A stretch of 64,000 nucleotides of DNA from an uncultured Desulfatibacillum sp. (GTDB lineage Bacteria; Desulfobacterota; Desulfobacteria; Desulfobacterales; SpSt-501): positions 41,469-105,468 of the forward strand of contig CAZNAX010000001.1 of the NCBI GenBank assembly GCA_964570965.1. Reading direction: 5' to 3'. Positions 18,926 to 22,924 of the stretch are shown here, in pieces. Below the pieces are notes generated by a model that worked only from the letters and a program-made list of their open reading frames with translations, was not told the DNA's origin and did no database searches. A program made the translations under genes and the position numbers. How positions within the stretch are numbered: position 1 is the first letter of the stretch; every line of letters starts with the position of its first letter.

Positions 18926-19183
18926 ATGACAAATCAAGTACCAAAAGTAATTTGTGTTGCCTGCGAAAGGCCGATTTTCTTCTGCAGAGCTGTGGGGCGG
19001 GACTACATAGGAGCCAATGTAAGAGCCGAGGACTTTGTTCCGATCGGTGATTATGCCGCTCCTAAAGAGGCAGATCCAATGATCTGTCCTCTATGTGGTA
19101 AATTGTTCGTACTACTCAATGGCAGAGGCGGGATCATCCTAAAGCTGGAGGGTGAGGCTTATTGGCCGCATCCTCCATTCTGA
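18926..19183 (+). CDS. Small zinc-ribbon protein
   Basis: ATG 18926 (MTNQVPKVICVACERPIFFC...ICPLCGKLF), with a CxxC...CxxC pair. The upstream part of ORF 18842.. overlaps the promoter. Confidence 0.55.
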   Translation: MTNQVPKVICVACERPIFFCRAVGRDYIGANVRAEDFVPIGDYAAPKEADPMICPLCGKLFVLLNGRGGIILKLEGEAYWPHPPF

Positions 19184-19194
19184 ATCAAGATCTC

Positions 19195-19223
19195 TTGACA
19201 TAGTGATCATGATCAGATATGTT
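19195..19223 (+). promoter_or_regulatory. Sigma70-like promoter with palindromic spacer
   Basis: TTGACA (19195-19200), 17 nt, TATGTT (19218-19223). The spacer holds the perfect palindrome TGATCATGATCA. Confidence 0.55.
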
Positions 19224-19271
19224 CATTGTGATCGTGATCGAGTACGACAAGTTGAAGTAAGGAAGGTAGAA

Positions 19272-20042
19272 ATGACACATCCGGCAGAGGCAAAGAGCGA
19301 CAAGGCAGCGGAGCTGAAGGAAAAGCTTGCGCGCCTGAAGAGTGGTGGCAATGGGCAGACGGCGGCTCCGGTACCGTCCAACGGAAATAGCGTGACCGTC
19401 CCGGCCAAGAAACGTGGTGGGATGGCGGACGTGCCAGGAGTGCATGTCTCTGAGACCCCCGTCGTGAAGAAGAGCCCAGTCGTGAAGAAGAGCCCAGTCG
19501 AGAAGGAGCCCAAAAAGACACCGGTGAGGGCTGCGAAGACCGCGAAGGCCGCCAAGTCCGAAAAGGCTCCAGCACCTCGAAAAGCAGCCAAGGAGAGCGT
19601 GGAGAAAGCTCCGAGGAAAGCCAAGAAGGCTGCAGAAGGTGAGATTCACCGGAGCATGGATAGGGACAGGAAAAGTGATGGTCTACGTCCTGTTGAAAGG
19701 GACATCATCAAGATCGTGAAGGCCAAGCGTGGGAAGCCAATCTCCATCCGTGACATCGCGATCGCAATGTTCGGGGAGGAGAAGGTAACCGTAGCATACG
19801 GTGAGGGCAAGAAGGACAACGAGCTCGTCCGTGTTGTTCGCAACGGCATCAGGGTCCCATGCTCCATTGGCATTCTCACTAGGTGGTCGAAAACTGGCGA
19901 TCCAGATGCGAAGCGTGGCTACGTGATGATGGTTGGGGTCTCTCCTCCTCCAGTCAGTGCTTCTGCGAAAGCGACGAAGATAGCGAAGGAGAAAGTCAGA
20001 GAGAAGGTCGCCGCCAAAAGGGCGAAGATCAAGTCTGAGTAG
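19272..20042 (+). CDS. Lys/Ala/Pro-rich histone H1-like DNA-binding protein candidate
   Basis: ATG 19272 follows AAGGAAGG. Basic repeats PVVKKSPVVKKSPVEKEPKKTPVRAAKTAKAAKSEKAPAPRKAAK, then a folded C-terminal domain. Confidence 0.55.
   Translation: MTHPAEAKSDKAAELKEKLARLKSGGNGQTAAPVPSNGNSVTVPAKKRGGMADVPGVHVSETPVVKKSPVVKKSPVEKEPKKTPVRAAKTAKAAKSEKAPAPRKAAKESVEKAPRKAKKAAEGEIHRSMDRDRKSDGLRPVERDIIKIVKAKRGKPISIRDIAIAMFGEEKVTVAYGEGKKDNELVRVVRNGIRVPCSIGILTRWSKTGDPDAKRGYVMMVGVSPPPVSASAKATKIAKEKVREKVAAKRAKIKSE
19458..19511 (+). repeat. 3 x 18-nt in-frame tandem repeat (PVVKKS)
   Basis: CCCGTCGTGAAGAAGAGC, CCAGTCGTGAAGAAGAGC, CCAGTCGAGAAGGAGCCC. Confidence 0.8.
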
Positions 20043-20058
20043 CTTCCAGACCGATAGA

Positions 20059-20092
20059 CAGGTGGGCCTCATAGAAATGTGAGGCCCACCTG
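20059..20092 (+). terminator. 13-bp perfect hairpin after H1-like gene
   Basis: CAGGTGGGCCTCA (20059-20071) pairs with TGAGGCCCACCTG (20080-20092). No clear U-tract follows, so termination efficiency is uncertain. Confidence 0.5.
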
Positions 20093-20109
20093 CGTCTAGT
20101 AGGTGTGGT

Positions 20110-20679
20110 ATGAACATTCTTGATCTAGAAGAAGAAGATGTATTCCAACTCAGCTCACCAACAAAAGGCGGTGTCATGGCAGAGGGTAAAAAGGTGGAGA
20201 GTAAACGCTCTACTCCTACAAGACCAATGATGAGTACGATAGGCCATGTACCTCCTGGTTGGGTGGGTAATTACCGCCAGACGCATGATCCGAATAGTGA
20301 GCGCTGTATGTGCGCTAGCTGTACTGTTCGCGAGTATCCCTACCTGCGTGAGGGGATTCCGGTACAGGTACACCCATCCTACTCAGCGGATACTCCGCAG
20401 ATGCAAAATATGGCCGGTCTCTACGACAAGAGAGTCATGAACAAAATGCAGGTCGAGTGCTGTAAGTGCCACATGTACATCGAGCTGGAAGGCGCAGTGG
20501 CTGACGCCTATACTCCAGAGAAACAAGACATCTGCCACTTTGGCTGTCTACCAGACGATGAGCGAAAGCACTTCGAGTCCATAGGGTACAGCCTTCCGTA
20601 CGTCATATTTATCAGGAAGATGGATGGAGGCAAGAATGGATCAGGACCCGTATCGGAGACACTGCCACAAAAGGAATGA
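20110..20679 (+). CDS. Cys-rich hypothetical protein
   Basis: 189 aa with AGGTG upstream. Cysteine motifs CMCASC, CCKCH and CHFGC. Confidence 0.6.
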   Translation: MNILDLEEEDVFQLSSPTKGGVMAEGKKVESKRSTPTRPMMSTIGHVPPGWVGNYRQTHDPNSERCMCASCTVREYPYLREGIPVQVHPSYSADTPQMQNMAGLYDKRVMNKMQVECCKCHMYIELEGAVADAYTPEKQDICHFGCLPDDERKHFESIGYSLPYVIFIRKMDGGKNGSGPVSETLPQKE

Positions 20680-20935
20680 TGTGACGGCAATCTACGAGGT
20701 CAACCTCGATGGGTTTGCTGGTGAAATTGGAAAGCTAGTGATCGTTCTGACGGATGGCACTATACTTCTGTACGACTTTCATAAGTATGTCCATGAGGTA
20801 CTAGGTCCTGAATGTGAAAGACGAAGCGTGCTTCTCCAGGACGTAGAAAGGGAGATAGGGTACGTAGAGGAGAAGCTGAAGACGCTGAAGCATCTTCGTA
20901 GGATGCTGGAACCCTCACCGGAGCTGACTGAGTAA
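20636..20935 (+). CDS. Hypothetical protein
   Basis: ATG 20636 lies 5 nt after GGAGG (MDQDPYRRHCHKRNDV...). It overlaps the upstream gene by 44 nt. Confidence 0.55.
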   Translation: MDQDPYRRHCHKRNDVTAIYEVNLDGFAGEIGKLVIVLTDGTILLYDFHKYVHEVLGPECERRSVLLQDVEREIGYVEEKLKTLKHLRRMLEPSPELTE

Positions 20936-21267
20936 TGGCACCGATCACTGATCTCAAATACGTCCGTTTCATCAAGGAAGGATCTGAGATAGGATCCTCG
21001 CTGATAGAGCAGGCCAAGAGGGAGATAAAGATCGAGCCCAAGGATGCATCAAAGACATTGGTGACAGCTTGGGTAGTGCTGAACGCCGTTTCTGCTGTTT
21101 GCCACCGAAACAGGATGCACACACAGGCAGCCAAGGTAGAGACGATGCGACAGAGGATCAGGTTCATGGCAGGTGAGCTGGCGACAGCAGGCTACCACTT
21201 GGTGACCGACGTACCAGATAGCCAGGTAGCGCTAGTCGTCACACCAAAGAAACCAGAGGAGGTGTAG
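20935..21267 (+). CDS. Hypothetical protein
   Basis: 110-aa ORF with TAATG overlap. Confidence 0.6.
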   Translation: MAPITDLKYVRFIKEGSEIGSSLIEQAKREIKIEPKDASKTLVTAWVVLNAVSAVCHRNRMHTQAAKVETMRQRIRFMAGELATAGYHLVTDVPDSQVALVVTPKKPEEV

Positions 21268-21269
21268 AG

Positions 21270-21737
21270 ATGGAACCGGAAGAGAAGACCAGAAGGATGT
21301 CCGAGTGGGCGGACGGAGTTCAGGACGGCAGCATCGAATTCCTCGAGGTTGCGCTTGATATGAAGGAGGCGAGCAAGGCTGGCTACGAATGGCCCTGGCT
21401 CATCGGCCTCTACCTCGAGATGTTCGCCAACCTCATTCGGAATGGAAGCTGCGCACCAGATTTCGATGCCAAGCTGAAGACGCGGATAAAGGTGGCGAGG
21501 ACCACTGCGTCCAGGGGCTACCTCGGCCCGTTCCAGGAAATGTCGAAGATGCTGTCTGGCGAACAGATCAGCGCCCTCGACAACATGAACGAAGTCTTCA
21601 TCGAGCTGTGGAACAAGATGCCTGGTAGCTGCGAGATCGACAAGATATTGAGCGAGGCGGCAACTCCACAGCAACAAGAGCTCCCGATCGTGACTGTTGT
21701 TACCCCACCGAATGGCGAGTTCCCGACGGCTGTCTAG
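21270..21737 (+). CDS. Hypothetical protein
   Basis: 155-aa ORF with RBS GGAGGTG. It is the last gene before the ORF-free region. Confidence 0.65.
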   Translation: MEPEEKTRRMSEWADGVQDGSIEFLEVALDMKEASKAGYEWPWLIGLYLEMFANLIRNGSCAPDFDAKLKTRIKVARTTASRGYLGPFQEMSKMLSGEQISALDNMNEVFIELWNKMPGSCEIDKILSEAATPQQQELPIVTVVTPPNGEFPTAV

Positions 21738-21760
21738 TATCAGCCAATAACTACGTAAGA

Positions 21761-21830
21761 GAAGAGGGGCGGCTTAGATCTTTCACTGTGATCCAGGGGA
21801 CAAGTTACTGGAATCTAGCCGCCCCTCTTC
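21761..21830. ncRNA. Structured element, unit 1 (candidate small RNA or terminator)
   Basis: GAAGAGGGGCGGCT(T)AGAT (21761-21779) pairs with ATCTAGCCGCCCCTCTTC (21813-21830), an 18-bp stem with one bulged T. Apical sub-hairpin ACTGT/ACA(A)GT. Strand is undetermined. Confidence 0.45.
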
Positions 21831-21864
21831 CCTGTTTCTAGTATCAAAGCTTTCACCTGTCAAT

Positions 21865-21944
21865 GGGAGAGAGGACGGCTTAGATCTTTCTCCTGTGTCC
21901 TGAGACCACAGGGTACTGGAATCTAGCCGCCCACAAACTCTCCC
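21865..21944. ncRNA. Structured element, unit 2 (paralog of unit 1)
   Basis: It shares GGCTTAGATCTTTC...TACTGGAATCTAGCCGCC with unit 1. Outer stem is GGGAGAG/CTCTCCC. The apical hairpin CCTGTG/CACAGG differs in sequence but not in position from unit 1, which looks like compensatory change. Confidence 0.45.
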
Positions 21945-22180
21945 AACCGATCCTAACATTACTCCTGGCGCCAGCGTGCTTCATTACGACCATTCGTACC
22001 CAGGTCTCAGGTACCCGGATGCCTCCCCACAAACACGTCGTGGGGCGCACAAGGACATACGATAGCCGCCACCATATTTGAATCTCCGATGGTGGCCGGA
22101 GCAGATCCTTTTGCGATAGGCGCCTTCACGCAAAGGATCCGATCATAGAAACAGTCCGTAACTGCTCCTCGATCAAAGAT

Positions 22181-22209
22181 CTTATATACACGATCTATCG
22201 TCTTTTTTC
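22181..22209 (-). promoter_or_regulatory. Leftward promoter candidate facing the ORF-free region
   Basis: Minus strand reads GAAAAA, 17 nt, TATAAG (CTTATA at 22181-22186). The first 20 nt nearly match the 36070 promoter (CTTATATACTGATCTAT vs CTTATATACACGATCTAT). There is no ORF downstream on the minus strand. Confidence 0.45.
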
Positions 22210-22218
22210 ACTTATCTG

Positions 22219-22226
22219 GGTATAAG
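22219..22226 (+). promoter_or_regulatory. GTATAAG -10-like element (plus-strand class)
   Basis: GGTATAAG lies 44 nt upstream of ATG 22270. It belongs to the recurrent GTTATAAG family found 35-70 nt upstream of first genes of plus-strand blocks. Confidence 0.4.
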
Positions 22227-22269
22227 ACTGACAGAGGAAGACCATTTGACGTGGTCATAGGAGGTTCAT

Positions 22270-22671
22270 ATGGGATGTGTGACCTGTGGAGGCGGAGTAG
22301 TAGAGAAACAGGAAGACATGTCGATCGAAGAGATCGAAGAGGAGCTGCGCGAGATGCGTACTCCAGCAGAGATGGACAAGCTGGAGAAGTGGCTCAAGAA
22401 CAGGCCATCAGAGGTAGAGAGAGTGGCCAGGGAATTTCCACCATGGCAGCTATATCGGATCAAGGATCAGGCACCCTACCGATTCACGGTTGAAAAGTCC
22501 GTTGTTGCCTCATACAAGTTCGTAGAGACCAACAACGGGGTGGAAGCCTACTTCAGAGTGCTACGTAGCCCGATCGGATACGCTGGCGTAGTCGCCCACA
22601 TTAGCCCCGCATTCTTGGAACCGATCACTCTTGATGATCTGAAGGAGGAGGTGAAGAATGAGGATCGTTGA
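22270..22671 (+). CDS. Hypothetical protein
   Basis: 133 aa with AGGAGG upstream. It is the first gene after the noncoding gap. N-terminus MGCVTCGG. Confidence 0.7.
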   Translation: MGCVTCGGGVVEKQEDMSIEEIEEELREMRTPAEMDKLEKWLKNRPSEVERVAREFPPWQLYRIKDQAPYRFTVEKSVVASYKFVETNNGVEAYFRVLRSPIGYAGVVAHISPAFLEPITLDDLKEEVKNEDR

Positions 22672-22924
22672 GCGGGAGTTCGATAACCTAGATGCCGTTC
22701 AGGGATTTATCGAGGGCATCAACTTCGTGAACGATGACGACATTGCTGTCCGTGAGGTGATGGTTGAAGTAAACGTCCTCGGAAAAGATCCACGAGTACG
22801 TTTCATAGTCCTCATACTGGATAGCGATGGTGATGATTCGGAGAGTGATCTGGTAGATGATGAGAACGGAGAATGGGTGCGCTTGCATCCAGGATGCTCT
22901 ACCGAAGTGTGCATGAAGAGGTAG
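22658..22924 (+). CDS. Acidic hypothetical protein
   Basis: 88 aa with RBS GAAGGAGGAGG. Contains DSDGDDSESDLVDDENGE. Confidence 0.65.
   Translation: MRIVEREFDNLDAVQGFIEGINFVNDDDIAVREVMVEVNVLGKDPRVRFIVLILDSDGDDSESDLVDDENGEWVRLHPGCSTEVCMKR

Follow-up and report, generated by a model that had tools for sequence, protein, structure and literature searches.

A gene-free locus of a large uncultured phage with two hairpin modules and a conserved structured region: a candidate minus-strand non-coding RNA

What does a large phage keep in half a kilobase of DNA that appears to encode no protein? The DNA analyzed here, which we call the window, is a stretch of 64,000 nucleotides (nt) corresponding to C1:41469-105468 of the contig G000:C1, which has 173,992 base pairs (bp) and 51% G+C. 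The locus in question is a gap of about 0.5 kilobases (kb), at positions 21738-22269 of the window, between two plus-strand genes at 21270-21737 (155 amino acids, aa) and 22270-22671 (133 aa). The contig was binned in a 3.8-Mb metagenome-assembled genome with a mean G+C of 59%, and near-identical contigs of 174,060 bp and 111,280 bp are present in other samples. Considering that its G+C differs from that of the bin and that it recurs in other samples, the contig represents a large uncultured phage of about 174 kb. It is carried by the samples JGI 3300009082, 3300027762, and 3300009166 and by SRR32314415 and SRR28346265. Within the gap, two hairpin units stand in tandem, accompanied by five or more other hairpins. 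We propose, with confidence that is evenly balanced, that it is a minus-strand non-coding transcription unit lying between two plus-strand operons and giving an RNA of about 430 nt. The observations behind this proposal are the repeats, their conservation, compensatory changes in the stems, the non-coding nature of the gap, a minus-strand bias of its middle part and a match to a promoter motif.

The gap does not have the character of a gene. As had been predicted from the window alone, it is free of open reading frames (ORFs) of at least 60 aa, which we confirmed for 21738-22250, where the longest ORFs are on the minus strand and have 58, 56, and 49 aa. One minus-strand frame is open in two related loci, L124 (127 aa) and L138, and is interrupted twice in the window. 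Counted by codon position in two comparisons, substitutions number 25/25/21 and 20/20/16, an even spread, and the insertions and deletions, several of 1 or 5 nt, are not multiples of three. A protein-coding gene was ruled out by the twice-broken frame, the flat distribution of substitutions and the frame-disrupting insertions and deletions.

The two hairpin units occupy the left part of the gap and can form on either strand. Unit 1 (21758-21833), which is the inverted repeat I1, matches a covariance model of the unit at 21763-21828 with 77.8 bits, and unit 2 (21864-21945) matches it at 21869-21936 with 86.1 bits. Whichever strand is folded, both give a long hairpin (z-scores of -2.6 to -5.1), and the whole region 21738-22180 is far more structured than its dinucleotide shuffles, with z = -5.8 for the minus and z = -4.1 for the plus strand. 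From its base, unit 1 has a 13-bp purine/pyrimidine lower stem, the invariant helix GGCU/AGCC, a bulged base and the helix AGAU/AUCU, beyond which the hairpin opens into an asymmetric internal loop, also invariant, and is capped by an apical stem-loop that varies. Unit 2 shows the same invariant core, with a lower stem GGGAGAG/CUCUCCC that carries a 5-nt bulge and an apical stem CCUGUG/CACAGG. The original prediction had described long hairpins whose apical and outer stems differ between the units and still pair, and the folds agree with it on these points. It had also placed the conserved sequence at the hairpin base, but the conserved boxes lie in the middle of the stem. The shared start that it had noted is real, the 10-mer TCTAGTATCA being repeated at 21733-21742 and 21837-21846, but this 10-mer by itself is not above chance in the window. 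The conserved arms CGGCTTAGATCTTTC (21770 and 21876) and TACTGGAATCTAGCCGCC (21806 and 21914) each have exactly two copies, 106-108 nt apart, and chance alone would give 0.05 matches of the second arm.

When the 3.8-Mb bin was searched with the unit covariance model, R1, the two adjacent copies were its only matches, and it matched nothing in 150 related genomes or in the scanned loci L126, L127, L135, L136, L139, and L142. Because the model finds no further copies, the unit is a local element limited to a narrow clade. A dispersed repeat or miniature inverted-repeat transposable element was excluded, since only two adjacent copies are present in the bin.

Relatives of the locus were reached via homologues of both flanking proteins, and four further lineages, five counting the window, carry it at flanking-protein identities of 65-99%. 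Both units are found in L122/L123 (upstream protein 99%), where the apical stem of unit 2 is altered, reading GCCUGCG/CGCAGG in L122 vs UCCUGUG/CACAGG in the window. L124 (upstream protein 81%) has both units and the entire middle part, and its unit 1 bears a 28-nt apical insertion that merely lengthens the hairpin. In L145/L146, whose upstream protein belongs to the 90% cluster of that of L125 (65%), one unit is directly followed by the middle part, and L138 (downstream protein 68%) has the remainder of the middle part and the promoter block. L138 and L146 stem from one sequencing run and overlap by 27 nt with one mismatch, and they are probably halves of one locus. L125 (upstream protein 65%), a sister of the L146 lineage, has one unit and then the promoter block; the middle part and the minus-strand promoter were deleted between two ACG triplets, so that L125 in effect provides a natural knock-out for the body of the candidate RNA. 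The deletion junction (L125 4780-4815, compared with L146 1045-1075 and L138 170-200) reads GTCAACG joined to ATCTATCG, at the shared ACG. In distant homologues of the downstream gene (L126-L130, L135, L136, and L139-L142), there is no gap upstream of the gene.

A near-invariant core is common to the seven distinct unit copies from these lineages. On the minus strand it reads GGCUAGAYUCCAGUA ... GAAAGAUCUAAGCC and consists of the helix GGCU/AGCC, one bulged A, the helix AGAU/AUCU (8 bp in total) and the asymmetric internal loop. Around it, the apical stem-loop varies in sequence and length and retains GGAY in its loop, and the lower stems differ among copies yet pair (GGGAAGAGGGGC/GCCCCUCUUCUC vs GGGAGAG...GGGC/GUCC...CUCUCCC). 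The module is 67-95 nt long, and its stem of 21-22 bp is broken by the internal loop. When the seven related copies were aligned by fitting to the model, a procedure that leans to structure, 91.8% of the cells paired and 8 of the 21 pairs changed on both sides, a result reached by none of 500 shuffles; in a plain MAFFT alignment of six unit copies, the pairing was not significant.

Next to the units lies the part of the gap that bears the strand signal. The candidate RNA body (21946-22140, minus strand) is conserved in L124 and in L138/L146 with compensatory changes and contains hairpins E (21996-22014), A (22025-22045), B (22068-22096), and C (22104-22139). Compared with the window, L124 and L138 show CCTCAC/GTGAGG in place of CCCCAC/GTGGGG, and GATCTTTCACA/TGTGAAAGATC in place of GATCCTTTTGCG/CGCAAAGGATC. 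Hairpins A, B, and C are those that had been anticipated from the window, and they are kept with compensatory changes in the relatives. Adjoining the body is the minus-strand 5' hairpin GAUCGAGGAGCAGU-UAC-GGACUGUUUCUAUGAUC (22141-22174, alignment columns 19-53), which has 10 G.U cells and in which G.U pairs become G-C or A-U in L124. This hairpin is absent from the plus-strand consensus fold; because it is rich in G.U pairs, it forms on the minus strand only.

All measures clearly favor the minus strand for the 235-nt middle part (21946-22180). Its consensus fold has 54 pairs and -49.9 kcal/mol on the minus strand, compared with 41 pairs and -37.6 kcal/mol on the plus strand. In the window, the whole region has a minimum free energy of -183.6 (minus) vs -150.9 kcal/mol (plus), and in L124 the two values are -191.7 and -169.2 kcal/mol. 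We also used a strand-neutral test, in which each sequence was folded without G.U pairs and the mismatches beside Watson-Crick helices were then classed. This gave 37 A.C mismatches on the plus strand, which are G.U on the minus strand, vs 13 G.U mismatches on the plus strand, a ratio for which base composition predicts about 1.4:1. The GC skew at the locus is -0.126, in the lowest 3.7% of equal-size windows, and the mean of plus-strand genes is +0.126.

These values bear on the idea that the hairpins are processing or regulatory sites on a plus-strand polycistronic RNA, either cleavage sites of the RNase III type, as found between the early genes of T7, or a put/nut-like element by which RNA polymerase would be modified to read on from the early operon into the next. 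On the one hand, the site is intercistronic, with a plus-strand operon on either side, each hairpin pairs over 21-22 bp around an internal loop, a few G.U pairs are possible only on the plus strand (in the L125 apical stem and the L146 lower stem), and the plus strand is also more structured than its shuffles (z = -4.1). On the other hand, the wobble evidence lies mostly on the minus strand (37 to 13), the plus strand folds less well by about 33 kcal/mol, and the hairpin at 22141-22174 is not formed on it. In addition, known put elements sit just downstream of promoters and not at the end of an operon. We consider this explanation improbable.

If the minus strand is transcribed, where would its RNA begin? 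The phage has a recurring promoter-like motif, GATC-n2-3-GTATATAAGATC with the variants GGTATAAGA and TGGGATAAGTA, of which about 17 copies occur on the contig, nearly all on the minus strand. About half of the sites lie in gaps, as judged from a crude ORF call, and several copies precede AGAAAGGA and a start codon on the minus strand. One copy, GATCnnGTATATAAGATC, points into the middle part on the minus strand. The corresponding element GATAGATCGTGTATATAAGATC (22178-22199) fits the motif well, and the predicted start, near 22174, would make the RNA begin at the first base of the 5' hairpin. The original prediction had placed a promoter of the minus-strand class here, directed into the region, and the motif match supports it. 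L124 and L138 retain the element, and L125 has lost it by deletion. A search of the phage contig for a T7-type RNA polymerase or a sigma factor, either of which could account for these special promoters, detected none.

Back-to-back with this element lies a plus-strand copy of the motif, GGGTATAAGA (22218-22227). It belongs to a nearly invariant block (22200-22269, plus strand) that also includes a leader hairpin, GACCATTTGACGTGGTC, and the ribosome-binding site of the gene at 22270-22671. Up to the leader hairpin, this block is near-identical in the window, L124 (6880-6956), L125 (4810-4889), and L138 (190-265), although the flanking proteins are only 65-81% identical. We also observed that GGGTATAAGA is overlapped on the minus strand by CCAGATAAGT, giving back-to-back promoter-like elements. 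The block may be a shared regulator-binding region.

The linker between the units (21834-21863) holds a second promoter-like arrangement on the minus strand, TTGACA (21863-21858) followed by a 17-nt spacer and TAGAAA (21840-21835). TTGACA with this spacing is retained in the window, L122, L124, and L125, and the linker of L146 has TTGACG, with TAGAAA 24 nt away. A host-type promoter TTGACA-N17-TAGARA before unit 1 was therefore downgraded to a weak candidate, considering that the spacing is lost in L146 and that the -10 box lacks T at -7.

At the other end of the locus, the tail after unit 1 (21738-21757, minus strand, UCUCUUACGUAGUUAUUGGCUGAUA) lies between the hairpin and the stop codon of the gene at 21270-21737. 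As minus-strand RNA it reads CUUCUCUUACGUAGUUAUUGG, within which every lineage conserves the box UUACRURGUUAU. The tails of the phage's terminator modules, where UUUCCUUAGCU comes after a hairpin, are similar. By this resemblance, the tail is a candidate 3' end of the minus-strand RNA. Read in the other direction, unit 1 begins 21 nt past the stop codon (21735-21737) with a stem of at least 8 G-C pairs, and in every lineage one unit follows the upstream gene, 20-25 nt past its stop codon.

From these features we infer the transcription of the minus strand, the ends of the RNA, its termination, its binding by protein and its biological role, as follows. The promoter of the phage's own class (22199-22178) would start an RNA near 22174. 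This RNA would open with the G.U-rich 5' hairpin, continue with four or five conserved hairpins (22140-21946), and end in the two hairpin modules (21945-21758) and a pyrimidine-rich tail abutting the stop codon of the convergent gene. Since both strands of the module fold equally well and each lineage has one copy immediately behind the upstream operon, the early plus-strand operon and the minus-strand RNA most likely also share it, at the point where they meet, as a hairpin for 3'-end formation or termination. We think that the module, which survives in L125 without body and promoter, is primarily such a 3'-end-forming hairpin; the units may therefore serve in this way for either or both directions, and not as non-coding RNAs in their own right.

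The same position after the stop codon bears on an explanation that does without the minus-strand RNA. The units would be terminator or 3'-untranslated-region hairpins of the upstream plus-strand early operon (19152-21737), perhaps bidirectional, that insulate the next promoter, and the rest of the gap would be spacer and leader with no separate functional non-coding RNA. Consistent with this, one unit follows the upstream stop codon at 20-25 nt in every lineage, including L125, which has neither body nor promoter; the units fold equally on both strands; their arms are purine-rich and then pyrimidine-rich whichever way they are read, with a U-rich plus-strand tail in L146 (CUCUUUUCUACUUUUACAUUCUCU); and the next operon bears a phage-class promoter motif. 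However, terminators normally keep structure and not sequence, and here 29 core positions are almost invariant at 65% flanking-protein identity. The recognizable terminators of this phage are short hairpins with CTTC loops, whereas the units are elaborate and 75-110 nt long, and no U-tract passes a simple scan. Moreover, this explanation leaves the conserved, compensating and minus-biased middle part of 235 nt and the inward promoter unexplained. We regard it as possible though doubtful.

A comparison with intrinsic bidirectional terminators at junctions of convergent genes gives a similar picture. Like these terminators, the units are G+C-rich hairpins that immediately follow a stop codon and can fold from either strand, and in each direction the 5' flank is rich in purines and the 3' flank in pyrimidines. 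They differ in having no clear U-tract, a length of 75-110 nt, a bulge, an internal loop and an extensible apex, as well as a core that is invariant across diverged lineages and a tandem duplication in some of them. Thus, of the features of an intrinsic terminator, the G+C-rich hairpin directly after the gene was found, and the U-tract was not.

Several of these results weigh against the proposed minus-strand RNA. The units themselves are strand-symmetric, with a consensus energy of -20.74 kcal/mol on the minus strand and -20.64 kcal/mol on the plus strand, and pairs favoring the plus strand occur in the L125 apical stem, in L124 unit 1 (one), in the L146 unit (one) and in hairpin A of L138. 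The five lineages and their seven distinct units are mutually related, and the significant pair count comes from the model-fitted alignment. The promoter class rests on a recurring motif and not on mapped transcription starts. In a scan of 21200-22700 with a rule of at least 5 U in 8 nt, 0-2 nt from the stem, no canonical U-tract follows the hairpins on either strand; their tails are mixed C/U, that of L146 on the plus strand being U-richer. In L125 the unit persists without body and promoter, and because it was kept after the promoter was deleted, the unit is independent of the minus-strand promoter. Accordingly, the original prediction of one or more phage non-coding RNAs on the minus strand holds for the non-coding character, the conserved structure, the bias of the middle part and the promoter motif, but it is not borne out for the units, which fold equally well on both strands.

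Why, then, would the core of the module be invariant? Because the simple terminators of this phage are short and variable, the invariance needs an explanation beyond folding. The core lies inside a stem that otherwise varies freely, which argues that some particular partner, probably a protein, recognizes it. On the minus strand, every one of the seven distinct units has 5'-AGUA-3' opposite 5'-GAA-3' in its internal loop, and this is the consensus sequence pair of the sarcin-ricin/loop-E (bulged-G) module (PMC1865062). This likeness is a match of sequence only, and the unit differs from the module by 1-2 extra nucleotides in the basal part of the loop (UCC opposite AG). The apical closing pair is Watson-Crick in unit 1 of the window only, and in 5 of the 7 distinct units it is C.A or C.C, which counts against the likeness.

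A more specific reading, which we hold only tentatively and think unlikely, goes further. The module would be a sequence-specifically recognized RNA element, a loop-E-like platform with a bulged base that is bound by a phage or host protein. Once bound, it would set the 3' ends of the two convergent transcripts and thereby switch the phage from the early operon to the next, and the 430-nt minus-strand RNA with its two modules would be a regulatory or decoy RNA of an undescribed family.

We also observed complementarity, on the minus strand, between the apical loop of unit 2 (21897-21905, GGUCUCAGG) and hairpin E, where it involves both loop and stem (22003-22011, CCUGAGACC). The match spans 9 nt in the window, falls to 8 nt in L124 and is down to 6 nt in both L122 and L146. 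It could represent a loop-loop contact, without support from covariation.

The strand symmetry of the units and the divergent promoter-like elements also bear on the question of whether the region acts as DNA rather than RNA. In that case it would form a cruciform or single-stranded-DNA hairpins at a replication origin, a single-strand initiation site or a recombination site, which transcription starting at the divergent promoters would activate. Such a role would suit 0.5 kb that contain no gene, carry promoter-like elements in divergent orientation and form hairpins symmetric on both strands, and the extrahelical base and the unpaired central loop recall folded single-stranded-DNA sites of recombination or initiation. 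However, no extremum of the cumulative GC skew lies here, the extremes being at C1:10878 and C1:167252, and the density of GATC is ordinary at the locus, its over-representation of about 3-fold being genome-wide. No integrase, Rep or transposase family is found among the ten flanking proteins, the conserved boxes are not at the stem base and do not match the attC R-box consensus GTTRRRY, and the hairpins with minus-only G.U pairs point to RNA. A role as DNA therefore seems highly improbable to us. Among the ten flanking proteins, both neighbors and eight more, the only match to Pfam or PHROGs is a CxxCxxCC domain 2 kb downstream.

No known RNA family matches the locus, and its general kind, that of phage structured RNAs convergent with an operon and of hairpins at convergent junctions, is known. 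The original prediction had suggested a scan against Rfam. A covariance-model scan of the window and five related loci with Rfam 15 (4227 models, both strands) gave no match at the gathering thresholds, and at an E-value of at most 10 it gave only mir-629 (21.3 bits vs a threshold of 72) and archaeal RNase P (9.3 vs 84), both noise. No tRNA or tmRNA was found.

Among phage RNAs, those of the lambda OOP type offer the closest layout for discussion. Lambda OOP RNA, P22 sar, P1/P7 c4, and P4 CI are phage cis-antisense RNAs of 70-80 nt, and RNAs of the OOP type are short gene-free units, dominated by stem-loops, that have their own promoter and are convergent with a protein-coding operon. The locus would be like them, with a promoter-like motif, a convergent layout, stem-loops and a predicted end near the 3' end of the opposing gene. 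The candidate differs in its length of about 430 nt and in its duplicated module with an invariant internal loop, and it has no similarity to them in sequence or in Rfam. An overlap with the opposing gene, as in OOP, would depend on the 3' end of the RNA, because the stem of unit 1 ends at 21758, about 20 nt short of the stop codon at 21735-21737. Like GOLLD, ROOL and the pRNA of phi29, the candidate is phage-encoded, non-coding, several hundred nucleotides long and rich in hairpins; compared with GOLLD and ROOL, it is smaller and has no adjoining tRNA cluster and no Rfam match.

Two systems with repeated RNAs were also considered and set aside. In type III toxin-antitoxin systems, the gene of an endoribonuclease toxin directly follows the ToxI-like antitoxin, whose tandem repeats measure about 34-47 nt each. 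Our units, with only 1-2 copies, are spaced by 104-108 nt, and neither Pfam nor PHROGs match the flanking proteins. The vrRNAs of VIPR consist of 9-16 YNNGG pentanucleotide repeats and a tail (10.64898/2026.04.26.720920). Such an array was excluded, since a regular-expression search of 21700-22260 found no run of at least three YNNGG on either strand, and four are needed. The locus shares with the VIPR guide-RNA arrays that it is phage-encoded, repeat-containing and non-coding, but its units are hairpins at 104-108 nt.

Searches in wider collections, from which close relatives may be absent, returned weak negatives. INPHARED phage records gave no match by DNA or by a 618-aa protein. Exact-pattern scans of viral, metagenome and genome collections with both conserved arms gave 0 matches. 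Exact-pattern scans with the invariant promoter block also gave 0 matches. Protein-based searches for the locus in viral and genome contigs, run with single proteins as well as with an alignment, found nothing, and a scan of genome contigs with a single 15-mer gave chance matches only. Among the contigs collected, L137 (positions 1-15, ENA contig k119_606294) starts with GTGTATAAGAGACAG, which resembles a remnant of the Nextera transposase adaptor; because of this adaptor-like start, the contig end is not genomic.

A second gene-free locus with the same layout lies about 61.8 kb beyond the end of the window, on the minus strand at C1:167277-167150. It has a promoter-like TGGTATAAGA and, about 45 nt later, a long hairpin, GAGACCCAGGAGA ... 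UCUCCUGGGUCU, with the tail UCUUUCUUACCUAGUCAUGG. This tail resembles that of unit 1, and covariance model R1 has no match there. The phage may encode several small hairpin RNAs.

The contig is also unusual in its tetranucleotides. TTAA does not occur once in the 173,992 bp of C1, compared with 244 copies of AATT, 231 of TATA, and 319 of ATAT. GATC occurs 2137 times, about 3-fold above the expectation from base composition, and adjoins most of the phage-class promoter motifs. These counts suggest a complete avoidance of TTAA-specific restriction activity and that GATC is somehow used or tolerated.

Phage non-coding RNAs are few and come mostly from model phages. The locus described here supplies natural experiments, in which two units occur with body and promoter, one unit with body and promoter, or one unit alone, and these arrangements, along with the invariant core, offer a clear target for mutation. 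If the units are only an elaborate terminator, the finding is ordinary. If the module is a factor-recognized 3'-end element or a protein-binding platform, it would represent a new regulatory RNA family and would provide a handle on the timing of gene expression in an unstudied group of phages of about 174 kb of freshwater or sediment type.

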